Source: Negativicutes bacterium
Lineage (GTDB): Bacteria > Bacillota > Negativicutes > UBA1444
Direction: 5' to 3'
DNA: 64,000 nucleotides
Assembly: GCA_963665275.2 (NCBI GenBank)
Contig: CAXXIN010000016.1
Span: forward strand, 192,001 to 256,000
In this document: positions 1,445 through 36,652 of the stretch, in pieces
Numbering within the stretch: position 1 is the first letter of the stretch
How the letters are laid out: every line of letters starts with the position of its first letter
The notes under the pieces: generated by a model
The model's database searches: none
Told to the model about the DNA's origin: nothing
The model's input: the letters and a program-made list of their open reading frames with translations, nothing else
Program-made: the position numbers and the translations under genes

Positions 1445-1488
1445 CTTAGAAACCTATTTTCGATTGTTCTGAAAGTTGATGCCTACAT

Positions 1489-1534
1489 GGAGCCGTTGGG
1501 GAACTTGCAAAAAGTTGTCTGCGGCTCTTTTTTG
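1489..1534 (+). terminator. Intrinsic terminator
   Basis: GAGCCG...CGGCTC stem followed by a T run. Confidence 0.6.
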
Positions 1535-1633
1535 CGTTAAGTGAGAACAGCGATATAATATAGCTATCAGGCAGATAAGGAATCCTGCGTAGGCAGGATT
1601 TTCATTTTTTAAAGGGTAAGGGGTCATCGAAAC

Positions 1634-3775: not shown

Positions 3776-3777
3776 GC

Positions 3778-6300
3778 GTGAACGATCTGCCAATTGACGC
3801 CGTGTTGCCGGAATTAAAAAAGACAGTTGCGGATAGGCCCCGGGTGGTACTGGTGGCCCCGCCGGGCGCCGGAAAAACCACCCGCGTGCCTTTGGCTTTG
3901 TTGAATGAGCCCTGGATGGCACGACGGAAAATCATTATGCTGGAACCCCGCAGGCTGGCTGCCCGCGCAGTTGCCAGGTATATGGCGACGCTTTTGGGTG
4001 AACCAGTGGGAAGGACTATCGGCTATCGGGTGCACCGAGATACATGCGTGAGCTCAGAAACACGAATCGAAGTTGTGACAGAGGGGGTGCTGACCCGCCT
4101 GCTGCAAAGCGATCCAGCATTAGAGGCTGCAGGACTCGTTATTTTTGATGAGTTTCATGAGCGCAGCCTGCAGGCCGATCTTGGATTGGCGCTGACTCTC
4201 CAGAGCCAGGCCTTGCTGCGGGAAGACCTGAAGATCCTGGTAATGTCGGCTACGCTGGAAACGGAGGCGGTCGCCGCATTGCTGGGAAACGCTCCAGTAA
4301 TCTGCAGCAGTGGGAAGAATTTTCCGATCCAAACCTATTATTTGCCGCGACCGGCAGAGGGCCGGGTGGAAAATAATGTTGCGACCGCAGTTCAGGAGGC
4401 TTTGCAGCAGCAAACGGGAGATATCCTTGTCTTCCTGCCCGGCGCCGGAGAGATCAGGCGTGTGGCGAGTTTGCTTGTCGGGAAAATAGAGGATGAGCAC
4501 ATCGAAATAAGCCTCCTGTACGGAGACCTTTCGCAGGCCCAGCAGGACGCGGCGCTTTTGCCGGCAAGACCCGGACAGCGCAAAATTGTGCTGGCGACTT
4601 CGATTGCTGAGACCAGTCTCACGGTGGAAGGGGTAGCGGTCGTGATTGACAGCGGACTGATGCGTGTGCCTCGGTATTCACCCCGCACCGGAATGTCGAG
4701 GTTGGCAACAGTGCCGGTATCGAGTTCTTCGGCTGATCAGCGTAGAGGCCGGGCAGGACGTCTCGCCCCAGGAAGCTGCTATCGTCTGTGGACGGAGCAG
4801 GAAGATGCCAGGCTGGCAGCGCGCAATACGCCTGAAATATTGGAGAGTGATTTGACCTCCCTCGCTCTGGAATTGGCGGCGTGGGGCATTGCCGAACCAC
4901 AGGAGCTCCAGTGGCTTGATTTGCCACCGAGCGCCGCGTGGCAACAAGCCGGAGAGTTGCTCCGAGAATTGGGGGCTCTGGACAGGAACGGGAAAATAAC
5001 TCCGCACGGCAGACAGATGAAACGGGACAGGACTGCATCCCCGGTTGGCGCACATGTTGCTGGCTTCCGCAGCCATGGGCAGGGAACAGGAGGCGTGCGC
5101 TCTGGCGGCGCTGCTCAGCGAGCGGGATGTGCTGCGCAGTACGGATGGGGCGGAAGATGTCGATCTGCGACTGCGCCTGGAGATTATCCAACAAGGGCAG
5201 GCGGGGTTGGATCAAGCCGGTTATGCGGGTCATAGCGTTGATCGGAACCGAATGGGCCCGCTTGCGGCAGGAAATCGGGTATTGGCAAAAAAGACTTGGC
5301 CTAGCCGAAAAAATGAGTTTTGACAGTAACTGTTGCGGGATTCTCCTGGCGTTGGCCTATCCTGACAGGATCGGGCAGGGTCGGGGTCGGCGGCCGTTTT
5401 TTGCTGCGGAACGGCAGAGGCGCGGCGTTGAAAGAACAGCAACCACTGGCGTCGGAGGCGTTCATCGTGGCAGCTGATCTTGGCGGATGCCGGTTCAGAC
5501 AGCCGTATCTTTTCCGCTGCGACGGTAACGGAACACGAACTGCGTCAGTATATGGCGGAACAGATCGAGAAAACGATCTCGACCGGCTGGGATGCAGGGA
5601 CGAAAAGCGTCCGCTCTCTTAAAACCGAGAAGCTCGGTGCGTTGGTTCTGAAAGAAGAACTCGTAACGCCGGAGGATGGGGAGTTGGTCTTGACAGCGCT
5701 GCTGCAGGGGATTCGGCTGGAAGGACCGGCAATATTGCCGTGGACCCACGGCAGCAGGCAACTGGCAGCACGGTTGCAGTTCATGCATCGTCTCGAGCCG
5801 GAGTGGCCGGATGTCGCGGAAGGCCAGTTGATGTTCGAGCTGGAAACCTGGCTGGCTCCTTATCTGCACGGCATCAGAAACGCACAGCAACTCAGCAGAC
5901 TCAAATTGGGCGATATTCTTGAGGCGAGGCTGACCCTGGGCGCAGAAACAACTTCTCAACGAATGGGCCCCCGACCCAGCTGGAGATTCCCAGTGGCCGT
6001 CGCGCTGCGGTTGATTATACCGACCCGGCGGCGCCGGTATTGGCGGTTAAACTACAAGAAATGTTCGGAGCGACAGAGACCCCTGTCCTTGGCGGCGGTC
6101 GTATACCAGTAACGCTTCAACTGTTGTCGCCGGCAGGTCGTCCCATACAGGTAACCCGCGATTTGGCCAGCCTTTTGGCGCACTGGATATTTCGCCGTCA
6201 AAAAGGATCTCAAGGGGAGATATCCCAAACATTACTGGCCGGAGGACCCGTTCAAGGCGGTGCCGACCACCCCGTGTCAGACCCCGGGAAGGAGATTTTT
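3778..6300 (+). CDS. hrpB: ATP-dependent helicase HrpB, split by several frameshifts (end approximate)
   Basis: [19 protein letters not shown] and QRRGRAGR. The C-terminal [19 protein letters not shown] and [13 protein letters not shown] motifs lie in successive frames. Confidence 0.9.
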
Positions 6301-23392: not shown

Positions 23393-25547
23393 TGGAGCGA
23401 GTGGTAACATGAATGTGAATCAAGTGGCGGCCGAAACACAGGTGGCCACATTTCAAGTTGACGGCATCACCTGCATGGACTGTGCCCGAAAGTTTGAGCA
23501 GGCAGTCGGTGAGATGTCTGGAGTTATTAAGTCCTCGCTTAATACAATAACAGGCACGCTAACGATTGAAGGACAGCCCGATCTCGAGGGGCTTCGCCGG
23601 TTGGGGATGGAAGAGAACTATACAATTACTCCTCAATCAGAAAAATCTGCGCAACGCATACAGCAGCAGGGTGAAAAAACTGATTGGGACCTCCGTCGGG
23701 CTGTATTATCCGGCTTGTTTCTGAGTATCGGTTATGGGCTGGAGAAATTTGACGGAGCAGCGATCGCGTTTCTTTCCTTTTATATTGCAGGAACGGTGAT
23801 GGGAGGGTGGGGAAATTTCCGCAAAGCAGCCATAGCCTTGCCACGCGGCAATTTTAACATGAGCGTCTTGATGAGCGTGGCGGTTGTTGGCGCTATTGCC
23901 ATCGGGCAGTATGAAGAAGCTGCGTCCGTGGCGTTCCTTTTTTCGATATCGGAAATGCTGGAACGCTGGACAATGGAAAAAGCCCGACGCTCCATCCGTG
24001 ATCTGATGGATATCGCACCCAAATTCGCGAGAGTGCGCCGAGATAGTCTTGAAACCGACATACCGGTCGAAGATATCGTTGTTGGCGACATCATGATGAT
24101 TCGTCCCGGCGAGAAGATTGCCATGGATGGCAGGATCTTGAAAGGCGAATCCGCCATTAATCAGGCCGCTATTACCGGCGAATCAATGCCAGTGGAAAAG
24201 AAAACGGGCGATGAGGTGTACGCCGGAACTTTTAATACGCATGGCGCACTCGAAGTCGCAATAACGAAACTCGTACAAGATACGACCATTGCCAAAATCA
24301 TTCATATGGTGGAGGCGGCCCATGGTAATCGGGCGCCTTCTCAGGCCTTTGTTGAGAGATTTGCGGCCGTTTATACACCGATCGTCATGGTCTTGGCTGT
24401 TGTTATCGTATTGATTCCGCCCCTGTTCTTCGGGCAGGAATGGGCGTCATGGATTTATCGCGGGCTGACCCTTCTCGTGGTTTCTTGTCCGTGCGCTCTC
24501 GTAGTGTCCACCCCGGTGGCGATCGTTAGCGCCATCAGTGTTGCTGCGAAAAACGGGGTACTCATCAAGGGCGGCATCCATCTTGAAGCAGTAGGGTCCC
24601 TCAGTGCCATTGCGTTTGACAAGACGGGAACCTTAACAAAGGGAGCGCCTGTCGTCACGGATATCATTTTGCTCAATGGTATTTCCGAAGAAGAGCTGCT
24701 GAGAATTTCTGCAAGTTTGGAAGTGCGTTCCGAACACCCCCTTGCTGCGGCTATTATCAACGCTGCGGCAGAACGCGAAATTGAGGTTGTTCCTGCCGAA
24801 GCTTTTAGTTCCATTGGAGGCCGGGGGGCGCAGGGTAACGTAAATGGCGAGCTTGTGTACATCGGAAATCCGCGTCTTTTCGCGGAAATGGATATCTCGA
24901 CAGAGACAATTGCTGAACAAGTGGAGCAGTTGCAAGGCGAGGGAAAAACAGTAATGCTCGTTGGTACCAGAACGAAATTTTTAGGGATTGTCGCTGTCGC
25001 CGATGAAGTGAGGGCGGACAGCGCGAAAACGATCGCAGCCCTGAAACAAGGGGGTATCGCTCATACCATCATGCTGACAGGCGACAATGCAGCTACCGCC
25101 GCAGCCATGGCGCTGAAAACAGGCGTGGACGAATTCCGGGCTGAACTCCTTCCTCAGGACAAGGTAGCTGCAATACAGGAATTGGTAGATAAGTACGGCA
25201 AGGTGGCGATGGTGGGCGATGGGGTCAATGATGCGCCTGCGTTAGCGCTGGCGACTGTCGGCGTTGCCATGGGCGGCGCCGGAACCGATACGGCTCTTGA
25301 AATCGCAGACATCGTACTGATGGCAGACGATCTCCATAGGTTGCCGTTTACGGTTCGATTGAGCCGCAAAGCACTTGCGATCATTCGCCAGAACATTGCT
25401 TTTTCGCTGATCATCAAAATTATCGCAGTACTAGCTGTGTTCCCTGGCTGGCTGACTTTATGGCTGGCGATTTTGGCGGATATGGGGGCATCTATCCTGG
25501 TAACGCTGAACAGCCTGCGATTGCTGCAGGTTAAACCCAAAGAATGA
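23385..25547 (+). CDS. cadA: Heavy-metal (Cd/Zn) P1B-type ATPase
   Basis: HMA CMDC, TGES, SCPCAL, DKTGTLT, SEHP and GDGVNDAP. Confidence 0.92.
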   Translation: MISGASGNMNVNQVAAETQVATFQVDGITCMDCARKFEQAVGEMSGVIKSSLNTITGTLTIEGQPDLEGLRRLGMEENYTITPQSEKSAQRIQQQGEKTDWDLRRAVLSGLFLSIGYGLEKFDGAAIAFLSFYIAGTVMGGWGNFRKAAIALPRGNFNMSVLMSVAVVGAIAIGQYEEAASVAFLFSISEMLERWTMEKARRSIRDLMDIAPKFARVRRDSLETDIPVEDIVVGDIMMIRPGEKIAMDGRILKGESAINQAAITGESMPVEKKTGDEVYAGTFNTHGALEVAITKLVQDTTIAKIIHMVEAAHGNRAPSQAFVERFAAVYTPIVMVLAVVIVLIPPLFFGQEWASWIYRGLTLLVVSCPCALVVSTPVAIVSAISVAAKNGVLIKGGIHLEAVGSLSAIAFDKTGTLTKGAPVVTDIILLNGISEEELLRISASLEVRSEHPLAAAIINAAAEREIEVVPAEAFSSIGGRGAQGNVNGELVYIGNPRLFAEMDISTETIAEQVEQLQGEGKTVMLVGTRTKFLGIVAVADEVRADSAKTIAALKQGGIAHTIMLTGDNAATAAAMALKTGVDEFRAELLPQDKVAAIQELVDKYGKVAMVGDGVNDAPALALATVGVAMGGAGTDTALEIADIVLMADDLHRLPFTVRLSRKALAIIRQNIAFSLIIKIIAVLAVFPGWLTLWLAILADMGASILVTLNSLRLLQVKPKE

Positions 25548-25679
25548 AAAAAGCAGTTAGAAAAAGATAGTCGCTGGATTCGTCCATCGACTGTCTTTTT
25601 TTGTATTTGCGGCAGGATTCAGGATCTCAATATCGAAAGAAGTATCTTTAGAATCAAGGTAATCGGCGTGTGCGGGGGT

Positions 25680-26486
25680 ATGCTTGTGAGTAGAAAATGT
25701 CGTTTTAGGTTGTGGATTTTTATTGTGTGCCTGTTGGTTCTGTACGGTGGCGAGACTACGGTGTGGGCCAGTCCTGAAGATGCTGTAAAATGCAAGGCGG
25801 CCGCAGAGAAGGGGCAGGGTAGTTCGGCCATTGAGGCGTGCACCCTCCAAATCAATAGTGATGCAAGTGATCTTGAAAGTGTATTTTGGCGAGGTGTGGC
25901 CTACTATAAGCGTGGATTTAGCAGCAAGGATGATTACCGGTCAGCTTTGGAGGACTTCAACAGGGTTCTGGCCGTGTATCCAAATGATATGCAGGCCTTA
26001 GAAAACCGGGCATCTTGTTATATGGAACTCAAGCGATATGAGGAAGCAATTTCCGACGCCAACGAAATCATTGCTGCGGACAGGACTTCGTTAGGAGCAC
26101 TCATGGTTAGAGGGAAGGCTTACTGGTGGATCAGTCGTTATGAAGATGCGATCAGCGACTATACCGCGGCGATAGCCCTTAACCCCCGGAGCGAGGATAC
26201 CAAGTTTTCAGCGTATTCAACCCGTGCGTCCTGTCATCGTTTCCTGAAAAATTATGAGCGAGCGCTGGCCGATTACACAATAGCTCTAGGCATTAAGCCT
26301 TCCTATCAACACGTGGCTGGATATATTGCGGATTGCTTGAATAAACTAGGGCGAAAGAACGAAGCTATCGCAGCATGGAACAATGTTATTGCAATAATAG
26401 ACCGAGATCCATCGCACGCAAAGGACCCCTATTATATTAAAGAGAAGGCCGCGGCTCAAGCGGAAATTGCGCAGTTGCGCAAATAA
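25680..26486 (+). CDS. Secreted tetratricopeptide-repeat protein
   Basis: Hydrophobic N-terminal signal and about five TPR-like repeats (e.g. YEEAISD, YEDAISDYTAAIALNP). Confidence 0.85.
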   Translation: MLVSRKCRFRLWIFIVCLLVLYGGETTVWASPEDAVKCKAAAEKGQGSSAIEACTLQINSDASDLESVFWRGVAYYKRGFSSKDDYRSALEDFNRVLAVYPNDMQALENRASCYMELKRYEEAISDANEIIAADRTSLGALMVRGKAYWWISRYEDAISDYTAAIALNPRSEDTKFSAYSTRASCHRFLKNYERALADYTIALGIKPSYQHVAGYIADCLNKLGRKNEAIAAWNNVIAIIDRDPSHAKDPYYIKEKAAAQAEIAQLRK

Positions 26487-26522
26487 TATTGATTCAAATA
26501 ATTGGGAATGACGTTGAAAATT

Positions 26523-26592
26523 TGATAGGCTCCCCTTTCGGCAGTAGGGTTGATTACCCTGCCTACCATTGGAGGAGCCTGTCAATTTTTTT
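26523..26592 (+). terminator. Long hairpin/terminator after the TPR gene
   Basis: TGATAGGCTCC...GGAGCCTGTCA followed by a T run. Confidence 0.6.
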
Positions 26593-26652
26593 ATTGGAAC
26601 CTATTTGCGATATTCATCTTCCCAAAAGGGTATTGCAAATGCCCCTTGCAGC

Positions 26653-26916
26653 TTACTTTGTACTCTTAAACCCCTGAACACAGGTCGGAGGCGGAACCTC
26701 AGGCGGCCCGACGTTGACGCAGGTGCTGCTCGTACAGCTGGTCACGCACGCACTCGTGCAGGACGTACAGTTGGAAACGATTTTCGCGTTTGCAACTGAT
26801 GGATCGAAAAACACCGACAACAGTTCACAGGCCGCAGTCACCACCACGGCAGCTCCGCATTTTGCGATGAATCCCCGCCTTGACATCCCCTCGTTTTCTT
26901 TGAGATCCCGCTTCAT
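26653..26916 (-). CDS. Tat-signal, six-Cys SCIFF-like RiPP precursor peptide
   Basis: AAGGAGG RBS, ATGA overlap with the rSAM stop, SRRGFI twin-arginine motif, ANA cleavage site and core CTSCTSACVTSCTSSTC...C. Confidence 0.8.
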   Translation of the reverse strand: MKRDLKENEGMSRRGFIAKCGAAVVVTAACELLSVFFDPSVANAKIVSNCTSCTSACVTSCTSSTCVNVGPPEVPPPTCVQGFKSTK

Positions 26917-28400
26917 ACCGTTTCCTCCTTCACTGTGTTGGTTTCATTGTCAATCGCCTGTGCGGTTTGCGTCGCCAGATCCCATAACAGGACCTCCAGC
27001 ACTCGTTTCGTATAATCGCAGTTTATTCGTTCACAATAAGCACGTGCTTTCGGTGAAACGTGCTGCTGATCTGCCATCGCCAGATGCTGTACGGGGCACC
27101 CGCCGCCGCAAAGATAGCGCCAGGAACAGTCCTTGCACCCTTCCCGCCGGTCCACATGCAGGTCTGCCGCCATTTTCTCCAGCACCGGGTTGTCCGGATA
27201 GGTTCCCTCCATGATGTTTCCAACACAATATCGGGCAATGCCGACTAAGTAAATACAGGGAAACACATTCCCCTGCACATCCACTACCGGAGTGTTGCCG
27301 TAGGGGGCGCCACAGCCCAGGATGGACCGGTTGTTCGGTTGAAGCTTGGCCCGATAGATATTGAAAGGAAACAGGCGGTCCATTGTCCAGACGCCGCTTT
27401 CCTTAACACGAACCAGCGAATCAAGCATTTTATCAACGTCCGGAATCAGCCGGTCAGACATAAAATCTTCGTCAGAATTAACAACATTCAGCGGAGCAAA
27501 AGCTGTACCCCAGCCACCCAAATCCCGGTGGTGCCTTGCAGTTTGCTCCAGGTGATCCTGGTTTAAGGCGGTTAACGTGGTCCGCAGCGAAACCGGAATG
27601 CCCTCTGCCACCAGTTTGCGAACATTGGCAGCGATCAAACTGTGGGTAGCTCCACCGCCGGAAAAGGGACGGCAACGGTCGTGCACATCGCCCTCGCCGT
27701 CAATATCGCACAACACCGACATTTTATGTTTCAGCGCCTTGGCAATAAAATCCTCCGGCAGAAAACTGAGATTGCTGGTAATATGATATCTAAATTCAAC
27801 TTCCGGATATTTTTCCTTCAGTACATTTTCTGTGTAATCAATGGTCTGTTTCGCGAGTTCCCAATTCAGCAGCGGTTCGCCGCCAAACATCGCCACTTCA
27901 AGGTAACCGCCCGGCGAAATCAGTGCCGCGCAACATTCGACTGCCCGAAATGCGACTTCCGTCGTCATCATCGGTCGATCATTCTTGCGGTACGTCCGCT
28001 TGCCGTTGAGACAATAAACGCAGCCCAAATTACAATCCTGCGCCAACAGCAGATACAAGGACATGCCTTGGGTCTTGTTTTTCCCGGCATCCGTGTGCCT
28101 CACAATTTCGGTAGCCGTCTCCCGCTCGCTTACCGGAACCAAAATGCTGTGTGCCAACAGAAAATCGAAAACCGACGTTTCGGCCGGCCATTTTTGCTTC
28201 AGTTCGTCAAGGGATGCTGGCTGCTTCTTCAAGAATGCGAGCAAGGTTTCGATAAATTGGCGGCCTCGTCGAACGACAACCGGATTCAGACGCAATGAAT
28301 TTGCCAAAAGCAGGCATTCATCGCGCTCCAGACGAATCAGGTTTGACGATGCTTTTAGTTTACCCTCTACGGCGGCATTTCGAGGAATCACAGCTTCCAT
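26913..28400 (-). CDS. Radical SAM/SPASM peptide maturase with an N-terminal RRE-like domain
   Basis: CNLGCVYC, FGGEPLL, SPASM motifs GCGA..GNVFPC and CKDCSWRYLCGGGCP..YC, and a ~100-aa N-terminal extension. Confidence 0.92.
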   Translation of the reverse strand: MEAVIPRNAAVEGKLKASSNLIRLERDECLLLANSLRLNPVVVRRGRQFIETLLAFLKKQPASLDELKQKWPAETSVFDFLLAHSILVPVSERETATEIVRHTDAGKNKTQGMSLYLLLAQDCNLGCVYCLNGKRTYRKNDRPMMTTEVAFRAVECCAALISPGGYLEVAMFGGEPLLNWELAKQTIDYTENVLKEKYPEVEFRYHITSNLSFLPEDFIAKALKHKMSVLCDIDGEGDVHDRCRPFSGGGATHSLIAANVRKLVAEGIPVSLRTTLTALNQDHLEQTARHHRDLGGWGTAFAPLNVVNSDEDFMSDRLIPDVDKMLDSLVRVKESGVWTMDRLFPFNIYRAKLQPNNRSILGCGAPYGNTPVVDVQGNVFPCIYLVGIARYCVGNIMEGTYPDNPVLEKMAADLHVDRREGCKDCSWRYLCGGGCPVQHLAMADQQHVSPKARAYCERINCDYTKRVLEVLLWDLATQTAQAIDNETNTVKEETV

Positions 28401-28829
28401 TTTGTCTCCCTTTAAGCGTCAATGAGCGTCAATTTCTAAGCTGTTCTTTTTAAAAGATTTACGGTATGAGCCGAAATCTGAAAATATACTATTGAATTCA
28501 TTATATTCTCTTGCCTACCCAATTGACAACTCTTAAGTTTTCAAATGGTTGCTTGTTTAGACCTCCCTGGGTATCGACTTGTACTTATAAGCGCAAAAAA
28601 AATTCTGAAAATAGCAGGAACTTCAAAATCAACTGCGAAATAATTATAGGTGTGGAAATGAAACGCGGCCGCAGAATCTTTCCGGCCGGACCAATGGAAT
28701 ACAGTACTCGTGGTTTTCGGGTACGTTTGAGCAGAGTGCTGTTTTCCAAGGCAGTGTTCTGCTTGTTTTTTTATGTGGCTACGGCAAAGGTAACTGATTC
28801 CATAATGTAAATGTAAGGGGGAAAGAAAA

Positions 28830-31556
28830 ATGCAGAAGCGGGTTCTCAAGATCAATGGAGTCGAACGGTCCTTCATCACCGACTCGGAAAAGTCACTGGC
28901 GAGTGTCTTGCGGGAGCAATTCCTGCTGACCGGCTGCAAGATTGGCTGTGGACAGGGGCAATGCGGCGCCTGTTCGGTCATCATGGATGGCAAGGTCATT
29001 AGATCCTGTGTGACGAAAATGAGCCGGGTTCCTGACAATGCAGAAATCTTTACTATTGAAAGCCTCGGTACGCCGGAAGACCTGCATCCGTTGCAGTTGG
29101 CCTGGATTGCGCATGGCAGTGCCCAATGCGGTTTCTGTACGACCGGGTTTATCATGTCCTCCAAGGCGTTGCTGGAGGAAAACAAAAATCCCACACGGGA
29201 GCAGGTCAGAGACTGGTTTCATGCGCATCGTAACGCCTGCCGTTGCACCGGCTACAAACCACTGATTGACGCTGTGATGGATGCCGCCAAAGTGATGCGG
29301 GGAGAGAAAAAGAAAGAAGACTTGCTGTTTAAACCTGTCAAAGGCGGCAAAATTATCGGTACGAAGTTCCAACGGCCTTCCGCTGTGGCAAAAGTCACCG
29401 GAACTTGGGATTTTGGCGCCGATGGCGCTTTGCAGATGCCGCCCGGAACGTTGAGGCTGGCTTTGGTTCAGGCGGAAGTCTCCCATGCAGTCATCAAGGG
29501 CATTGATGTATCGGAAGCAGAGAAAATGCCTGGCGTTGTCAAAGTAGTCACTTATAAAGACGTGAAAGGCAAAAATGCCATCACTGGATTGATCACTTTC
29601 CCGACGAACAAGGGCGATGGCTGGGATCGGCCCATCCTTTGCAAAGATAAGGTCTTCCAGTTCGGTGACGCGATCGCGATCGTTTGCGCCGAGACTGAGG
29701 AACAGGCAAAAGCAGCGGCCAAGAAGGTAAAAGTGGATTTGGACGTTCTGCCTGCCTATATGAGCGCCCCGGCTGCCATGGCTCGTGATGCCATCGAAAT
29801 TCACCCCGGGACGCCCAACGTTTACTACGAACAGGGCATAATCAAGGGTGACGATACCAAACCATTAATGGAAAAAGCGGAGTATGTGGTGGAAGACAGC
29901 TTCTACTGCAGCCGCCAGCCGCATCTCACCATCGAGCCTGACTGTGGATATGCCTACTATGATGACGATGGCTGTCTGACCATCCATTCCAAGAGTATCG
30001 GAATTTTCCTGCATCATGCCATGATCTGCCCAGGCTTGGGCATCGAACCGGATAAACTCAGACTTGTCCAGAATCCGACCGGAGGCACGTTCGGCTATAA
30101 ATTCAGCCCGACGATGGAGGCTTTGCTGGGGGTGGCCTGCATGGCTACAGGCAAACCGGTATCCCTGGTTTACTCGATGTACCAGCATATTACCTATACC
30201 GGAAAGCGCTCGCCAGGCTTTGTCAATCTCAAATATGGGGCTGACAAGGACGGCAAACTCATTGCGATGGAAAGCGACTGGACGATTGACCACGGTCCGT
30301 ATTCTGAGTTTGGCGACTTGCTGACATTGAGGCAGGCTCAATTCATCGGAGCCGGATATGACATCCGCAACATCCGTGGAAAAGGGCGGACCGTCTGCAC
30401 CAATCATGCCTGGGGTTCGGCATTCCGGGCCTATGGATCACCACAGGCATTCCTCGCATCAGAGTGTCTGATGGATGAACTGGCGGAAAAAATGGGAGTG
30501 GACCCGTTCGATCTGCGTTACAAGAACCTCTATCGCCCAGGCGCCACAACGCCAAACGGGTGCGAGCCTGAAGTATATTGTCTGGTCGAAATGTTTGACA
30601 AGCTGCGCCCCAAATATGAAGAAGCAAAAAAACGGTGCAAGGAACTGTCTACACCGGAGAAAAAACGCGGCGTTGGCCTGGCCGTGGGAATCTACGGATG
30701 CGGCCTGGACGGGCCGGACGGTTCGGAAGCGGCAATTGAACTGACTCCTAACGGGGTGACGATATTCAATACCTGGGAGGATCATGGCCAGGGAGCCGAT
30801 GCGGGTGCGCAAACCATTGCTCATGAGGCGCTTCGTCCGTTGGGCCTGGAGCCGGATCAGATCCAACTGTGCATGAATGATACGGCGAAATGCCCGAACA
30901 GCGGCCCTGCTGGCGGCAGCCGGTCCAATGTTATGACAGGTAATGCGACCAAGGTATCTTGTGAAATGCTGCTGAACGCGATGCGCAAACCGGATGGAAC
31001 CTATCGCACCTATCAAGAGATGGTCGACGAAAAGATTCCCCTCAAATACAATGGCAAATGGGCGGCAGCGGCATGTTCGCCCTGCGACCCGGTTACCGGG
31101 CAGGGCAAACCCTTCGCCGTCTATATGTACGAAGTGTTTATGCCGGAAGTCGAAGTCGATTTGAAAACCGGCAAAGCCTCCGTCGCCAAATTCACGACCG
31201 TCGTGGATGTGGGTACCATCATCAATCAAACAGTGGTCGACGGACAGATTTATGGTGGGCTGGCCCAAGGGATTGGTCTGGCGCTAAGCGAGGATTTCGA
31301 AGACCTGAAGAAACATACCAGCCTGGCCAGCTGCGGCTTGCCCTACACCAAAGATATTCCCGATGATATCGAGATTATCTACAATATTACTCCGCGTGCA
31401 GATGGTCCGTTCGGCGCGGCTGGTGTCGGTGAAGCCCCATTGACGGCGCCGCATCCGGCAATTCTGAACGCGATCTACAATGCCTGTGGAGTGCGTATTA
31501 CCAAGGTGCCGGCATTACCGGAAGTGATCAAGGCAGCTCTGGCGGCAAAAAAATAA
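28830..31556 (+). CDS. Molybdopterin-dependent aldehyde oxidoreductase (Desulfovibrio Mop type, 2x[2Fe-2S] plus Moco)
   Basis: GCGQGQCGAC, QCGFC..CRCTGY, GGTFGYK, AFRAYG and GVGE. Confidence 0.95.
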   Translation: MQKRVLKINGVERSFITDSEKSLASVLREQFLLTGCKIGCGQGQCGACSVIMDGKVIRSCVTKMSRVPDNAEIFTIESLGTPEDLHPLQLAWIAHGSAQCGFCTTGFIMSSKALLEENKNPTREQVRDWFHAHRNACRCTGYKPLIDAVMDAAKVMRGEKKKEDLLFKPVKGGKIIGTKFQRPSAVAKVTGTWDFGADGALQMPPGTLRLALVQAEVSHAVIKGIDVSEAEKMPGVVKVVTYKDVKGKNAITGLITFPTNKGDGWDRPILCKDKVFQFGDAIAIVCAETEEQAKAAAKKVKVDLDVLPAYMSAPAAMARDAIEIHPGTPNVYYEQGIIKGDDTKPLMEKAEYVVEDSFYCSRQPHLTIEPDCGYAYYDDDGCLTIHSKSIGIFLHHAMICPGLGIEPDKLRLVQNPTGGTFGYKFSPTMEALLGVACMATGKPVSLVYSMYQHITYTGKRSPGFVNLKYGADKDGKLIAMESDWTIDHGPYSEFGDLLTLRQAQFIGAGYDIRNIRGKGRTVCTNHAWGSAFRAYGSPQAFLASECLMDELAEKMGVDPFDLRYKNLYRPGATTPNGCEPEVYCLVEMFDKLRPKYEEAKKRCKELSTPEKKRGVGLAVGIYGCGLDGPDGSEAAIELTPNGVTIFNTWEDHGQGADAGAQTIAHEALRPLGLEPDQIQLCMNDTAKCPNSGPAGGSRSNVMTGNATKVSCEMLLNAMRKPDGTYRTYQEMVDEKIPLKYNGKWAAAACSPCDPVTGQGKPFAVYMYEVFMPEVEVDLKTGKASVAKFTTVVDVGTIINQTVVDGQIYGGLAQGIGLALSEDFEDLKKHTSLASCGLPYTKDIPDDIEIIYNITPRADGPFGAAGVGEAPLTAPHPAILNAIYNACGVRITKVPALPEVIKAALAAKK

Positions 31557-31595
31557 CGATCGACGGTCACAGGGCCATATTCACTGAACAACTGA

Positions 31596-31630
31596 AACGA
31601 ACCGGAGGCACTCGCCTCCCGGTTCGTTTT
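31596..31630 (+). terminator. Hairpin after the aldehyde oxidoreductase gene (partial terminator or mRNA stabiliser)
   Basis: AACGAACCGG...CCGGTTCGTT followed by TT. Confidence 0.55.
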
Positions 31631-31649
31631 GGACTATGGGGAGAGCAGT

Positions 31650-33942
31650 ATGGAACGCAATGTTTGCCGTGAACGGGAAGCCAAGTGTATAGAGGAGCAG
31701 GCTCCGGCCTGTACGGCGTCCTGCCCTGTCCATGTGGACGTGCGCGGAATGGTGGCGGCGGTCGGACGGCAGGATTTCGCCGCAGGGTTTGCTTTGCTTG
31801 CGCGGTCGGTTCCTTTTCCGAGAATTATCAGCCGGATTTGCGATCATCCCTGCCAACAAGCGTGCAAACGCAATGAAGCCGGGGATGCTATTGAGATCCG
31901 GGCGTTGGAACAGGCCTGCGCCGATTACGGCGACATGCCTGCAGGAAGAATCTTGGCGACTCCCAAACAATCCAGGAAGATTGCCGTTGTCGGTGGTGGC
32001 CTAAGTGGATTGACGGTGGCTTTTGATTTGGCGCAAAAGGGTTACTCGGTGACGATCTATGAAGCTACTGAGCGCATTGGCGGGCGAATATGGACTTATA
32101 GCGAACAACAGCTGCCGCGCCAGCTGATTGAAGCGGATCTGGCGGCACTTGCCGCATTGGGCGCTGAGGTGCGATGCAACGTGCGGGCTGGGACTGGCGA
32201 AGCTGTCGACTACGACGTGCTACGCGAGCAATATGACGCGATATATGTCGGGACTGGCGTAATAGAGCGGGAGAAGTGGCAGGCCGAGATTGACCCGGCA
32301 ACGCAGGCGACTAGGCAAGAAAAGATTTTTGCCGGGGGAGGGGTGACTCCTTATTCGCCCATCACTTCGGTGTTGCAGGGGCGGATTGCGGCGATTTCGA
32401 TCGACCGTTTCTTGCAGAAGGCCTCGTTGACTGCAGGACGGGAATCGTTGGGTTCTTATGAGACTAAGCTTTTCACCAGTCTGAAAGGAGTTGTGCCGCG
32501 GCTTGCAGCTCCGGCAGCTTCCGGGGTAATCGGTTATACTCAAGCGGAAGCCGGGACGGAAGCTCTACGGTGTTTGCAGTGCCAGTGCCTGGAATGCGTG
32601 AAAGTCTGTGAGTATCTGGGACATTTCGGATCCTATCCCAAGCGATACGTACGCGAAATTTACAACAATGACACGATTGTGATGGGAATTCACCATGCCA
32701 ATAAAATGGTGAATTCCTGTGCGCTGTGCGGCTTATGCGCAACGGTTTGTCCCAATGGACTGGACATGGGAACGGTTTTGTCTGGATGCACGGCAAGGTA
32801 TGGTTGCCAAAGGCAAGATGCCGCCTTCGGCGCATGACTTTGCTTTGCGTGACATGGAGTTCAGCACCGGTGAACAATTTGCAATGGCACGTCATCAGCC
32901 CGGATTTGCTGTGAGTCAGTATCTTTTTTACCCTGGCTGCCAGTTGGCGGCTTCTGCACCGGCTCAGGTCGAGAAGGCCTACGATTATTTGCGTCAGAAA
33001 CTCGACGGGGGCGTCGGTCTGATGCTGGACTGTTGTGGTGCGCCGGCCGAGTGGGCGGGGCGGCAGGACCTGTTTCAGTCAAAATTGCAGATGTTTGAAG
33101 TGGAGTGGCGCAGACTGGGTTCGCCTGTGATCATTGCCGCCTGTGCCAGCTGTTGCCGGATATTCGGGCAATTCTTGCCGCAGATCCCGGTGAAATCGCT
33201 ATGGGCGATTATTGATTCGGTGGGCTTGCCTGCGTTGGCAAGTGCTCCAGATGAGGATGCTCTGTGCATTCACGACCCGTGCTCTGCCCGCCAATCAGCA
33301 CAGATGCAGGATCAGGTGCGCAGACTGCTTGAAAAAACTGGCGTGACGGTGGAGGAACCGGAATTGACGCGGGATCTGACCACCTGCTGCAGTTATGGGG
33401 GCCTGATGTCTTTTGCCAACCCGGAAGTGGCGAAAAAGGTCGTGCAGGGCCGAATCAGCGCCAGCGCGAAAGATTTTGTCGTCTACTGCGCGATGTGCCG
33501 GGATAATTTTTCGTCCGGTGGCAAGAGAGCCCTGCATGTGATGGATATATTGTGGCCTGACGGTACAGACGCTGCGGCGCGCCTCGCACCTGACTTTTCA
33601 ATGCGGCGTGAAAACCGTGCGCGGCTGAAAATCAAGCTGCTACGTGAACTATGGGGGGAAACCATGAGTGAGGTCAATGAGTTGATCGCGATGGAAATTT
33701 CACCGGAGATGCGCAAGATAATGGAAGAGCGCATGATCCTGGTGGAGGATGTCCGGCAGGTGATTCTCCATGCCGAAACCTCCGGCGAAAGCTTGCTGGA
33801 TCAGGCGACCGGCCGACGGATCGCTCATTTCCGTCCGGGCAGCGTGACGTATTGGGTGGAATATTCTCGGCTCGGAGACGGATTCTTGGTGCACAAGGCG
33901 TACAGTCACCGGATGATGGTTATAGAGGAGGCGGGGGTGTGA
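31650..33942 (+). CDS. Pyridine nucleotide-disulfide oxidoreductase / dicluster / CCG-domain protein, frameshifted near 32780
   Basis: GltD-like CTASCPVH..ICDHPCQQAC, GGGLSG, CLQCQCLEC, CALCGLCATVCP, then CCG domains (YPGC, CCGAP, HDPC). Confidence 0.85.
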
Positions 33943-34121
33943 CACTGGTTTGCGGTAAATGCGGCGTGCCTCTGATAGCGGGGAAAGTCACGGTCCGGTA
34001 CCTGGACAGCGCCTTTCCGGTGGAATTGCCGAAATGCCCAAAATGTGGACTGACTTACGTGCCGGAACCGCTGGCAATCGGTAAAATGCTGGAAGTGGAA
34101 AAAGCGCTGGAGGACAAGTGA
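33939..34121 (+). CDS. DVU_1557-like small CxxC redox/zinc-ribbon protein
   Basis: CGKC..YL..FPVELPKCPKCG..VEKALEDK; GTGA overlap with the upstream gene. Confidence 0.8.
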   Translation: MTLVCGKCGVPLIAGKVTVRYLDSAFPVELPKCPKCGLTYVPEPLAIGKMLEVEKALEDK

Positions 34122-35260
34122 TCATGCCGGCGAAGCCCAAAATTGCTGCAATTATCCTGGCGGCGGGATATTCTTCGCGTATGAAGGAATGGAAGCCGTT
34201 GCTGCCCTTGGGAAATACATCAGTGATCGGGCACGTGATCAGCACGTTTCAAAAGGCTGGAGTTTCAGACATTGTAGTAGTGGCTGGTCATCGGGCGCCA
34301 GAACTGGCTGCGGCGATCCAGAGCAAGGCAGTGCGCTGCGTGGTGAATGAGCTCTACGACAAAGGCATGTACGAATCTGTCGTCACCGGTGTCCGGGCTT
34401 TGCCTGAGGATACAGAGGCTTTTTTCCTTTTGCCTGTGGATGTGCCGCTGGTCAAAAGCCATAGCATAAGGTTGCTGGCCCGTCATTTTGCCGCTGGCGC
34501 CGGTGGGATCATCTATCCGGTGTTTCAAGGACAACGGGGTCACCCACCGCTGATCAGTACCAGATTTGCACCGTTGATTCTGGCTGGATCCCCGCCTGGG
34601 GGACTGCGGGCCCTGCTTGAAGAGCATGACGAGTCGGCGCAGGAAGTGGCAGTGCTGGATGAAGGTATCCTGATGGACATGAATACGCAGGAGGACTACC
34701 GCCGAATCCAGGAGCGGTTACGGGACCGAACGACCCCTTCTCCGGATGAATGCGCGGCGATTCTGGTTCAGGCCGGCACACCGGAGGTCGTGGTGAAACA
34801 TGGACGTCAGGTAGCCAGCCTGGCAGGTGAAATATCAGCCCAGCTCAATCAGGCAGGCATGTTGCTGGATACTCGTCTGCTGCAAACAGCCGCACTCTTG
34901 CATGATCTGGCCAAAGGCAGAAAAAACCACGCACAGGTGGGTTGTCGCCTGTTGCAAAGCATGGGTTACCCTCAAGTGGCCAATATTGTTAAACGCCATA
35001 TGGATATGGAATTCGATGCGGAGTCAACACTGGATGAAGCTGGAGTGCTATACCTTGCTGACAAGCTGGTTTCTCAGGACCGGTTGGTTTCCCTTACGGA
35101 CCGCTTCATATCGGCATCAAAACGATATCCTGAAGCGCACCCGGCTCAGCCGTTTATTCGCCATCGCCTGGATACGGCTAACAGGATTGCCTCAGTGGTG
35201 GAGAAAATTATTGGTCAACCGCTGGACCGTATAATGAGAAAATTGGGAGCTAGTTATTGA
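34118..35260 (+). CDS. MocA-like nucleotidyltransferase fused to an HD domain (DVU_1551-like)
   Basis: ILAAGYSSRM..KPLL, PVDVP, GHPP, DMNT and then LLHDLAK. Confidence 0.88.
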   Translation: MIMPAKPKIAAIILAAGYSSRMKEWKPLLPLGNTSVIGHVISTFQKAGVSDIVVVAGHRAPELAAAIQSKAVRCVVNELYDKGMYESVVTGVRALPEDTEAFFLLPVDVPLVKSHSIRLLARHFAAGAGGIIYPVFQGQRGHPPLISTRFAPLILAGSPPGGLRALLEEHDESAQEVAVLDEGILMDMNTQEDYRRIQERLRDRTTPSPDECAAILVQAGTPEVVVKHGRQVASLAGEISAQLNQAGMLLDTRLLQTAALLHDLAKGRKNHAQVGCRLLQSMGYPQVANIVKRHMDMEFDAESTLDEAGVLYLADKLVSQDRLVSLTDRFISASKRYPEAHPAQPFIRHRLDTANRIASVVEKIIGQPLDRIMRKLGASY

Positions 35261-36652
35261 TGAAAAGTTCACCTGCGGTTTTATTAAGTGAAACACAGAG
35301 CCTTTGCCCGATATGTTTAAAGCGGGTAAAAGCCAAACGAGTGGCTTATGGCGATGATGTTTATTTGGAAAAAACCTGTGACCGGCATGGCGATTTTCGG
35401 GTAATTGTTTGGCGTGGCAATCCGCAGTACGGGAAGTGGAGCGTTGCCAGGCACCCTTCAACTCCGCCGGTCTGTGATACGCAGGTTGACAGAGGATGCC
35501 CTTATGACTGCGGACTGTGTCCAGACCATCGGCAACATTCCTGCTGCGTTTTGCTGGAGGTCACCAGTCGGTGCAATCTGGGCTGTCCGGTGTGCTTCGC
35601 GCAGGCAGGCAGTGCCTGTGATGATCCGACGCTTGCGGATATCGAGGGGTGGTACAAAAAACTATTAGCCAGCGGCGGTCCTTTCAACATCCAGCTATCT
35701 GGCGGTGAACCTACCATGCGGGATGATTTGCCGGAAATCATTGCGATGGGACGTTCGCTTGGCTTTGGATTTATTCAACTGAATACCAATGGCCTTCGCT
35801 TGGCAACGGAACCCGGGTATGTCCAAAAACTTAAAAACGCAGGATTGTCCTGTGTCTTTCTCCAGTTCGACGGGACGCGCAGCGACATTTACGAGAAGAT
35901 ACGGGGCAAGTCGATATTGGCAGCCAAAGAGGCGGTAGTGGCGAACTGCACGCAGCAGGGGCTTGGCGTTGTTTTGGTGGCGACACTAGTGCCCGGAGTG
36001 AATGCGAATAATATCGGCGATCTGATCAACTGGGGCTTGTCCCATGCCCCGACGGTCAGGGGCGTGCATTTCCAGCCCATCAGCTATTTCGGCCGCTATC
36101 CAATGACGCCTCAGGACTGCGACCGGATCACCCTGCCTGAATTGATGCGCGAAATCGAACGGCAGACGGATGGCAGGGTACAGGCGGCGGATTTGCGTCC
36201 CCCCGGCGGAGAAAATGCCTATTGTTCGTTTCACGGAAATTTTTGTAGTTATGCCGGATGGAGAGCTACAGGCCTTGGTGGCGGATAATCCATCAGGCTG
36301 CTGTCAGAGCGCTGTTGCTGGAGACGGTGCGAAGAAAGCGCAGGCCTTTGTGGCGAAACGGTGGACGTTGCCGGCTGAAAAAACAGCGGTGGCAGCGGAA
36401 AAATGTGTGGGCGATTGCTGTGGCGTTAATGTTGACAGCCTGGATTTTTTTCTAAACCGGGTGGAGCAGTATTCGTTCTGCATTTCGGCTATGGCGTTTC
36501 AGGATGTTTGGAACTTGGACCTGGACCGGTTGCGGGACTGTTTTATCCATGTGATGGCTCCTGATGGTAAGCTTATTCCTTTTTGCGCCTATAATCTGAC
36601 TTCCCAATCAGGAGTGGGGCTATATCGTGCTGGAGTTGTCAGCCAACCATGA
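35260..36652 (+). CDS. Radical SAM protein, TrsS-like, frameshifted near 36245
   Basis: SLCPIC..KTCDRHG, GCPYDCGLCPDH, CNLGCPVC, SGGEPT and the C-terminal CFIHV..IPFCAYN. Confidence 0.82.

Follow-up and report, generated by a model that had tools for sequence, protein, structure and literature searches.

Peptides that are synthesized ribosomally and modified post-translationally (RiPPs) normally arise from precursors with a private leader, which a dedicated protease removes, and leave the cell through a dedicated transporter. Among the radical S-adenosylmethionine (SAM) enzymes, CteB, PapB and QhpD make radical thioether bonds of the ranthionine type. The subject of this report is a two-gene locus in a Negativicutes genome (assembly GCA_963665275.2), where the gene for a radical SAM enzyme with a SPASM domain overlaps an 87-amino-acid (aa) open reading frame (ORF) for a Cys-rich peptide with a twin-arginine (RR) leader. 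Both genes lie on the minus strand of a 64,000-nucleotide stretch of contig CAXXIN010000016.1, referred to here as the window. They very probably encode a maturase and its own precursor. A slight preference also goes to a fuller reading, a two-gene RiPP operon in which the enzyme's RiPP recognition element (RRE) would grip a signal sequence, the core would be cross-linked, and the product would be exported by twin-arginine translocation (Tat) and cleaved by signal peptidase I.

In SCIFF systems (CteA/CteB, Tte1186a/Tte1186; families TIGR03973 and TIGR03974), the enzyme combines RRE, radical SAM and SPASM domains, a layout it has in common with the window enzyme. According to a review, the SCIFF thioether joins Cys32 to Thr37 in vitro, and Cys32 to Thr34 through the gamma carbon of Thr on co-expression (PMC8172795). 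The RRE-radical SAM-SPASM enzyme CrpC of Methanococcus voltae (TIGR04463) is described in another paper as installing ranthionine links on a repetitive Cys-rich substrate, CrpA (PMC13692751). Like the window precursor, CrpA has a conserved N-terminal recognition region, but it is a large protein, unlike the 87-aa peptide, and the window enzyme reaches 55.4 bits on TIGR04463 against a cut-off of 525. As far as the main text of that paper goes, “Tat”, “secret” and “export” do not occur, and “signal” occurs three times, never in connection with secretion (PMC13692751).

Precedents for secretion signals on RiPPs come from elsewhere. Bufferins, modified by oxidative enzymes that depend on multinuclear non-heme iron (MNIO enzymes), carry a general secretory (Sec) signal that signal peptidase cleaves, have a Cys-rich core and use no dedicated exporter; in 2024 their authors presented them as the first case in which RiPPs were shown to rely on Sec signals in their native producer, and described signal peptides as rare in RiPPs (PMC11626156). 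Tat is not mentioned in that paper. In both bufferins and the window pair a general-secretion signal (predicted, in the latter case) forms the N-terminus of a precursor with a Cys-rich core, but bufferins use Sec and MNIO enzymes, whereas the window pair has a Tat-type signal and a radical SAM enzyme. Moreover, the bufferin signal is reported to be dispensable for modification (PMC11626156), whereas the hydrophobic region (h-region) of the window leader is the predicted RRE ligand. The lipoprotein pathway is used in a paper of 2026 (PMC13056109), and PMC5686179 treats Tat as a speculative route for the display of engineered lanthipeptides, with failed attempts reported. In the literature searched, which did not extend to supplements, no paper ties a twin-arginine signal to a radical SAM RiPP or describes a natural Tat-routed RiPP.

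At the window locus, the stop codon of the enzyme (TGA, 26913-26915) and the start codon of the peptide (ATG, 26914-26916) overlap as ATGA, and AAGGAGG on the minus strand stands 7 nt upstream of the peptide ATG as read from the sequence. The peptide is present as a single copy in its own genome. Six of 61 related genomes, including this one, carry the enzyme; the other five are among the 11 further genomes of the genus, and the 49 outside it have none. In all five of the other same-genus loci that include the 3′ end of the enzyme gene (L005-L009), the peptide follows directly 3′ of it; L010 contains the 5′ half of the enzyme gene only and was excluded from this count. Between the L005 and L006 peptides, 6, 4 and 36 differences fall at codon positions 1, 2 and 3, respectively, with 30 synonymous and 11 non-synonymous codon changes, and this dominance of third-position change points to purifying selection on the peptide ORF. 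Judged by synteny and codon comparison, the 87-aa ORF is a real gene and the partner of the enzyme. An earlier note on this DNA, made from the letters and ORFs of the stretch, had described the ORF layout, the ATGA overlap, a strong ribosome-binding site, the SRRGFI motif, an ANA site and a 43-aa core with six Cys, and each of these statements is correct.

The enzyme passes the Pfam cut-offs for Radical_SAM (PF04055; 44.9 bits against 29.5) and Fer4_12, and falls short of that for SPASM (16 bits against 21.5). The TIGR04085 SPASM domain model (52.4 bits, cut-off 27) is the sole NCBIfam model that it passes. Among the 66 families listed in the NCBIfam scan, no equivalog reached its cut-off, including those for PapB (162.6 bits, cut-off 340), the nif11-type enzymes (150.3, cut-off 518.7), the SCIFF maturase TIGR03974 (150.1, cut-off 425), QhpD (125.6, cut-off 453) and the CXXX-repeat enzyme TIGR04115 (67.4, cut-off 350). 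The comparison with SCIFF, CXXX-repeat and QhpD models that the earlier note had proposed thus leaves the enzyme under all three cut-offs. On its domain matches, the enzyme is a radical SAM/SPASM peptide maturase at the superfamily level. A word-indexed search returned 319 relatives, of which the best 120 are ~495 aa long and 44-95% identical. These 120 are labelled just “radical SAM protein”, “SPASM domain-containing protein” or “uncharacterized protein”, and come from metagenome-assembled genomes (MAGs) labelled Nitrospirota, Desulfobacterales, Geobacteraceae, Polyangia and others. The family is uncurated, and serves RR-leader, Cys/Thr-rich peptides. Its cluster may already appear, uncharacterised, in Haft & Basu 2011, Hudson 2019, Clark & Seyedsayamdost 2022 or Supplemental Data set 1 of PMC13692751.

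An AlphaFold2 model of the enzyme has a pLDDT (predicted local distance difference test) value of 89.6 and a predicted template modelling score (pTM) of 0.87. In the model, the N-terminal domain consists of strands at residues 14-17, 21-26, 29-34 and 41-43 followed by helices at residues 47-59, 64-70 and 72-83, a beta3-alpha3 winged-helix topology that makes the domain RRE-like. A Pfam match to PqqD was absent at E<=1. The SCIFF maturase CteB is the closest solved protein both by sequence (5wgg, E 4e-29) and by fold, where Foldseek aligned 482 columns with 5why/5wgg at E 1e-22 and TM 0.68-0.79.

The precursor begins with an n-region of 11 residues, followed by SRRGFIAK (residues 12-19), a hydrophobic stretch at residues 20-37, CGAAVVVTAACELLSVFF, and DPSVANA. 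Cleavage is predicted between VANA and K (residues 41-45), with ANA at residues 42-44. Cysteines of the core occupy positions 50, 53, 57, 61, 66 and 79, and the leader contains two more, at 20 and 30. In an alignment of 19 family peptides, R13 and F16 are invariant, R14 is found in 18, and the leader holds a conserved block, T-A-[AS]-[CY]-x3-S-V-F. The default pattern of TatP, as given in its paper, is RR.[FGAVML][LITMVF] (PMC1182353). It is matched by 16 of the 19 aligned members and by 127 of 137 further matches to a profile of the family; by leader type, it occurs in 26 of the 30 leaders of the SVF type and in 107 of the other 114. In family leaders, a long polar n-region precedes RR, which stands near residue 17; their best 13-residue Kyte-Doolittle hydrophobicity is modest (median 1.81). 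Among the SVF-type leaders, AxA lies at most 14 residues past the SVF block in 22/30, and 12/30 have Lys or Arg in the c-region. At E<=1, the model “formate dehydrogenase region TAT target” matches 12 of the 19 members and TAT_signal 11, the latter with 18.2 bits for the L021 peptide. As judged from these motifs, the window leader agrees with the twin-arginine consensus and has an AxA site at its end. The genome also encodes the translocase, with a TatC match of 206.9 bits, an adjoining tatA and a second tatA elsewhere. TatC was found in five of the six enzyme carriers among the relatives, the missing case being an 84%-complete genome, and in all three enzyme carriers of another phylum.

How the enzyme would recognize this leader was approached by complex prediction with both alignments, under a mark that 58 of 80 solved complexes and two of 110 mismatched pairs had reached. 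The enzyme-peptide model scored 0.77, compared with 0.00 for the best of three controls, with at least 42% of contacts agreeing between runs. The groove of an RRE lies between its last strand and its third helix, and the leader binds there as an added strand. On the peptide side, the confident interface comprises residues 23-25 and 27-38 (..TAACELLSVFFD); on the enzyme side, it comprises residues 31, 33, 39-46, 49-50 and 73-84 and part of the C-terminal helix. The h-region of the signal-like leader is thus predicted to sit in the RRE groove of the enzyme, a placement drawn from one structure prediction together with the conservation patterns of the leader. The RR motif falls outside the confident interface, though it is the most conserved part of the peptide. 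The suggestion in the earlier note that a Tat signal doubles as the RiPP leader is consistent with this model.

In the preferred reading, the cytoplasmic enzyme would recognize its precursor through the N-terminal RRE domain, which would grip the T-A-A-C-E-L-L-S-V-F stretch, that is, the h-region of a twin-arginine-type signal. The enzyme would then cross-link the Cys/Thr/Ser-rich core, most likely by radical thioethers of the ranthionine type (Cys sulfur to side-chain carbon); by analogy with its relatives, such thioether linkage is marginally the better bet. Release from the enzyme would free the signal, and the peptide, now cross-linked, would be guided to TatABC by S-R-R-x-F-[LI] and cut behind A-N-A by signal peptidase I. 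Such a route would make a dedicated protease or ATP-binding cassette (ABC) exporter unnecessary. Indeed, the remark in the earlier note that no dedicated peptidase or ABC exporter is encoded nearby holds for the ~18-36 kb part of the window, where neither an ABC exporter, a C39 peptidase nor another protease was found; the ten flanking ORFs from six related loci likewise included no exporter or peptidase. Taken by itself, Tat export with cleavage by signal peptidase I is about an even call. A further and more tentative idea is that the RRE may act as a built-in Tat proofreading chaperone, holding the h-region, and with it the precursor in the cytoplasm, until the core is stapled and then releasing the folded peptide to TatABC and signal peptidase. 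Overlap of transport and chaperone-binding functions in Tat signals is the theme of PMC3712460, going by its title and abstract. In proofreading of the TorD/DmsD type, a cytoplasmic protein binds the Tat signal of the substrate until maturation ends. The likeness would be a functional analogy only: these chaperones have no sequence or fold relation to the window enzyme, and the binder here would be the RRE of the modifying enzyme.

Table 1. Features of the maturase-precursor locus, in window coordinates.
Feature	Position	Strand	Basis or remark
Radical SAM/SPASM peptide maturase, 495 aa, family without a curated model	26913..28400	-	ORF and domain scans
Precursor peptide gene, 87 aa plus stop	26653..26916	-	ORF, synteny, codon comparison
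Shine-Dalgarno sequence AAGGAGGA	26923..26930	-	6 nt before peptide ATG, within 3′ end of enzyme gene
Promoter-like TTGTCA-18-TATAAT, 11/12	28500..28529	-	~100 nt 5′ of enzyme ATG; consensus match only
CX3CX2C radical SAM cluster motif (C123, C127, C130)	28011..28034	-	Invariant in 36 aligned relatives
SPASM region, seven Cys (C363, C382, C422, C425, C431, C435, C461), two auxiliary clusters	27018..27314	-	Invariant in 36 aligned relatives
N-terminal RRE-like leader-recognition domain, residues 14-89 (predicted)	28134..28361	-	AlphaFold2 model, Foldseek
Twin-arginine motif SRRGFIAK, residues 12-19	26860..26883	-	Matches TatP default pattern
h-region and predicted RRE-binding stretch, residues 23-38, ...TAACELLSVFFD	26803..26850	-	Complex model, conserved block
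c-region with ANA, predicted signal peptidase I site after A44	26785..26802	-	AxA in 22/30 leaders of this type
Core peptide, residues 45-87, six Cys, SCIFF-like TSCTSACVTSCTSS, conserved PPPTCVQGFK tail	26656..26784	-	

The pair had previously been read as SCIFF-like, and at the level of the core there is a clear resemblance. The genome contains a true SCIFF pair on another contig (L096; G000 contig C19: 51328-55650), with a maturase at L096 1471-2883 (-) that scores 601.8 bits on TIGR03974 and a 46-residue precursor at 2917-3081 (-) that scores 76.9 bits on TIGR03973 (cut-off 50). The core of this precursor has the TSC.SAC.TSCT motif in common with the window core: TSCTSACVTSCTSS of the window and TSCQSACKTSCTVS of the SCIFF precursor are identical at 11 of 14 positions (BLASTP E 2e-4). 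The window peptide differs by its additional PPxxPPPTCVQGFK tail. Its leader differs too, for that of the SCIFF precursor in the same genome is short, without RR motif or hydrophobic stretch, and so agrees with the earlier description of canonical SCIFF leaders as short and non-secretory. On TIGR03973, the whole window peptide is not listed at E<=1, and the core alone gives no match at E<=10. With its core unmatched, its enzyme well under the TIGR03974 cut-off and a true SCIFF pair already encoded on another contig, the window pair was rejected as a SCIFF system, and the maturase cannot be counted as a SCIFF member. Both pairs being present in one genome, the organism has two ranthipeptide-type systems. 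It had also been claimed that the window core keeps the C-x4-T register in which CteB forms its thioether. The motif does keep that register, but the register itself comes from in vitro work, and the review reports the Cys32-Thr34 link on co-expression (PMC8172795). The window motif ACVTSCT retains both reported Cys-Thr registers, and the likeness to SCIFF therefore permits the same chemistry without fixing it.

The second close comparison is with the CXXX-repeat system, which has the layout of RR signal, Cys-rich repeats and radical SAM/SPASM enzyme in common with the window pair. Apart from TAT_signal, the only NCBIfam match of the window peptide at E<=1 is TIGR04117 (“Cys-Xaa-Xaa-Xaa repeat radical SAM target protein”), at 22.4 bits against a cut-off of 50 and spanning leader and core; the core on its own has no NCBIfam match at E<=10. 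Fifteen of the 19 aligned family members match TIGR04117 at E<=1. Of 301 class genomes searched, four, each of them from the genus of the window, have true TIGR04117 members (58-91 bits; “Syntroph_Cxxx”), and in 301 genomes of another phylum no match exceeds the cut-off. For instance, at L116 (G005:C5:54386-62000), two TIGR04117 peptides precede a TIGR04115 radical SAM enzyme (619 bits) and a TIGR04119 “CXXX repeat peptide maturase” (233 bits) within 1471-4318. TIGR04115 aligns there from residue 21 of a 391-aa protein, which leaves that enzyme without an N-terminal domain of RRE size. The L116 genome, of the same genus, lacks the window's enzyme, while G004 carries both systems. True TIGR04117 peptides start with ..DRRxFF.. 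and continue with a hydrophobic stretch; their h-region reads ..IPTLGxLGLSL.., compared with ..TAACELLSVF.. in the window. No TIGR04115 member over the cut-off was found in the window's own genome, and a TIGR04119 partner was not seen at the window locus, the whole genome not having been searched for it. Membership of the window pair in the CXXX-repeat system was rejected on the peptide and enzyme scores alike; it is a sister design, with another enzyme family and another h-region. The literature searched by accession and by “CXXX repeat” yielded nothing relevant. The layout of RR signal, Cys-rich peptide and radical SAM/SPASM enzyme is nonetheless already catalogued in silico, as curated and apparently unpublished families. 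The possibility raised earlier, that the pair belongs to a family already described, is thus partly borne out: a TIGR04117-type layout has been curated and occurs in the same genus, but the window pair itself lies under the cut-offs.

The family extends well beyond the genus. The enzyme search of genome contigs gave three distant matches (21-28% identity), which were not used for context, although one (L003) pointed to another phylum, where the enzyme was then found in three of 301 sampled genomes. Among metagenome contigs, 550 stretches encode enzyme relatives and 80 loci were kept; 22 of these (L011-L032, 35-52% identity) were examined, and the other 58 (28-33%) were left out as other radical SAM families. 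The earlier expectation of an RR-plus-Cys ORF beside enzyme homologues is borne out in every same-genus locus noted above, in 12 of the 22 metagenome loci (as an RR-leader or Cys/Thr-rich ORF) and in two of the three carriers of the other phylum, the third having none. The adjacent ORF lies downstream of the enzyme in L011, L012, L016, L021, L025 and L027, and upstream in L013, L014 (identical in sequence to L013), L018, L026 and L029; L020, described below, is the twelfth locus.

A profile built from the 19 aligned peptides was searched against 1.84 billion representatives (clusters at 50% identity), and retrieved 139 clusters at E<=1e-3 and 20 at E<=1e-10, mostly from syntrophs, sulfate and metal reducers, and Nitrospirota-type MAGs. 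Seven peptides and 137 new profile matches were sorted together. Of these 144 sequences, 12 have the ..PPxCV.. tail of the window peptide, eight have a ..CCISCT.. tail, and 13 more have the T-A-S-Y-x3-S-V-F leader with other cores; the remaining 111 fall in none of the three groups and include leaders resembling those of TIGR04117 members. A conserved leader followed by cores of many kinds is typical of RiPP families.

Several loci depart from the simple two-gene arrangement. In G218, of the other phylum (L121/L128, G218:C57; L130, L131), four tandem paralogous precursors lie downstream of the enzyme, with copies on two other contigs, and their signals end in ..AGGASC, which is lipobox-like. 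At L030, two tandem enzyme paralogues (1832-3055 and 3499-4920) have no Cys-rich ORF nearby. In L020 (3-356, +), the Cys/Thr repeat forms the C-terminal portion of a longer ORF truncated by the contig edge, with ..GGIYFGSDDKHLYAL.. before the repeats, so that some substrates may be domains of larger proteins. The high-GC loci L025 (2197-2751) and L027 (1001-1417) encode long Cys/Thr repeat proteins that keep the hydrophobic stretch and AQA without RRxF, and may be Sec-type or anchored variants. Directly 3′ of the precursor, L011 (7838-9031, +) and L016 (2620-3891, +) have a family-9 glycosyltransferase of the heptosyltransferase type, which might glycosylate the Ser/Thr/Cys-rich core.

A number of observations weigh against the preferred reading. 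Three of the aligned members miss the TatP pattern (RRxFC twice, RKDFL once), L025 and L027 have no RRxF, and the window peptide scores 15.9 bits on TAT_signal TIGR01409, just under the cut-off of 16.7. Its h-region is atypical, with 11 uncharged residues followed by Glu31. Thresholds of the TATFIND type call for an uncharged h-region of about 13 or more residues; a run of at least 13 is found in 18 of 27 SVF-type leaders versus 101 of 110 other RR peptides. Since TatC is encoded in 51 of the 61 genomes of the class, its presence discriminates little. In ten of the 22 metagenome loci, no Cys-rich ORF adjoins the enzyme; six of these are truncated at one end or both, but the flanks of L015 and L024 are long. 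In the complex model, the pLDDT of the partner is at least 42 yet under 50, and because a CteB-leader complex has been solved, the pass of the model may reflect memory or likeness and not independent evidence. The proposed cross-link chemistry, for its part, is extrapolated from relatives at ~20% identity.

Some of these points suit other explanations. One is that the N-terminus only resembles, or descends from, a Tat signal and serves as a leader, with RR addressed to the maturase and the peptide staying inside or leaving by an unlinked transporter. The conserved sequence of the h-region and its predicted role as RRE ligand would fit such a leader, as would the acidic h-region and short uncharged run of the window subfamily and its TAT_signal score under the cut-off. 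This is unlikely, however. RR lies outside the confident RRE interface and is common to TIGR04117 peptides, which have another h-region and, in L116, a maturase without an N-terminal domain of RRE size, so that something besides the maturase appears to select it; the AxA sites and basic c-regions have no role in a pure leader; and no other protease was found in the surroundings. Export or anchoring by a route other than Tat, whether through a Sec signal, an uncleaved anchor or, in some relatives, a lipoprotein signal, with a Cys-rich domain on the outer membrane face, is rather doubtful, though bufferins provide a reported precedent for a Sec-signal RiPP (PMC11626156). Signals in some relatives end in lipobox-like ...SGC or ...GASC, L025 and L027 keep the h-region and AQA without RRxF, and the small rings of a 43-residue peptide might traverse Sec. 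On the other hand, the S/T-R-R-x-F consensus is nearly invariant, the best 13-residue hydrophobicity is low, and a peptide modified by a cytoplasmic Fe-S enzyme has to be exported after its translation. Basic c-regions, moreover, are typical of Sec avoidance. Macrocycles are also poor Sec substrates in the view of the bufferin authors (PMC11626156).

The peptide could alternatively be no free product at all. As with QhpC and QhpD, it would be a small cross-linked subunit, or the carrier of a cofactor, for a redox or metal-handling enzyme outside the cytoplasm, and would use its Tat signal to travel with, or carry, the partner. QhpD is among the nearest models (126 bits), the hosts are anaerobes rich in Tat-exported redox enzymes, the family leaders weakly resemble the formate dehydrogenase TAT target model (12/19), the PPPTCVQGFK tail is strongly conserved, and ranthionine links installed by the radical SAM enzyme CrpC on the Cys-rich protein CrpA are reported (PMC13692751). 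This alternative is nevertheless quite improbable. There is no conserved partner gene, as the neighbours in the window (tetratricopeptide repeat (TPR) protein, P-type ATPase, Mo oxidoreductase) differ from those of the same-genus loci (GPR1/FUN34/YaaH), and the widely varying cores and the tandem paralogous precursors of G218 fit a RiPP better.

If, as the preferred reading holds, the leader is both RRE ligand and Tat signal, the locus would offer a natural means of exporting cross-linked peptides while folded, and a two-gene chassis of simple design for the secretion of stapled peptides. It would also give entry to a family of at least 139 clusters with uncharacterised products, and lend the curated CXXX-repeat families a testable export logic. 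If the RRE does act as a proofreading chaperone, the window pair, the CXXX-repeat system and these relatives would together form a large and unstudied class of Tat-routed, radical-SAM-cross-linked, Cys-rich peptides, which would act outside the cytoplasm of anaerobes, perhaps in binding metals or sulfide.

An all-against-all BLAST of the ORFs from 27 loci found nothing conserved beyond the pair, save TPR proteins (L015, L019, L023, L024 and the window) and the family-9 glycosyltransferase (L011, L016). The TPR protein lies directly downstream of the enzyme at L015 (7451-9883), L019 (1812-4322), L023 (2186-3133) and L024 (7882-8856), with no Cys-rich ORF there; that of the window (25668-26486, +) is convergent to the pair and has a signal-like N-terminal stretch. 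TPR repeats cross-match easily, and the adjacency may be a coincidence. On the 3′ side of the peptide gene no clear intrinsic terminator was found, and an Rfam scan of 25500-29500 gave no match at E<=0.1.

The ~18-36 kb part of the window also encodes a heavy-metal P-type ATPase alongside the TPR protein, a ferredoxin/flavodoxin-like protein, MarR, DoxX, pirin, a NUDIX hydrolase and a polysaccharide deacetylase. A link to metal resistance through the P-type ATPase was considered and dropped, as the same-genus loci carry a GPR1/FUN34/YaaH gene at that place. Divergent from the pair, 28830-36288 (+) encodes a 908-aa [2Fe-2S]/molybdopterin enzyme of the aldehyde oxidoreductase type, Fe-S/flavin adenine dinucleotide and CCG-domain proteins, a MobA-like nucleoside triphosphate transferase that includes an HD domain, and a radical SAM protein bearing a zinc ribbon of the HMPTM type, a run that looks like a molybdoenzyme with its cofactor-maturation genes.

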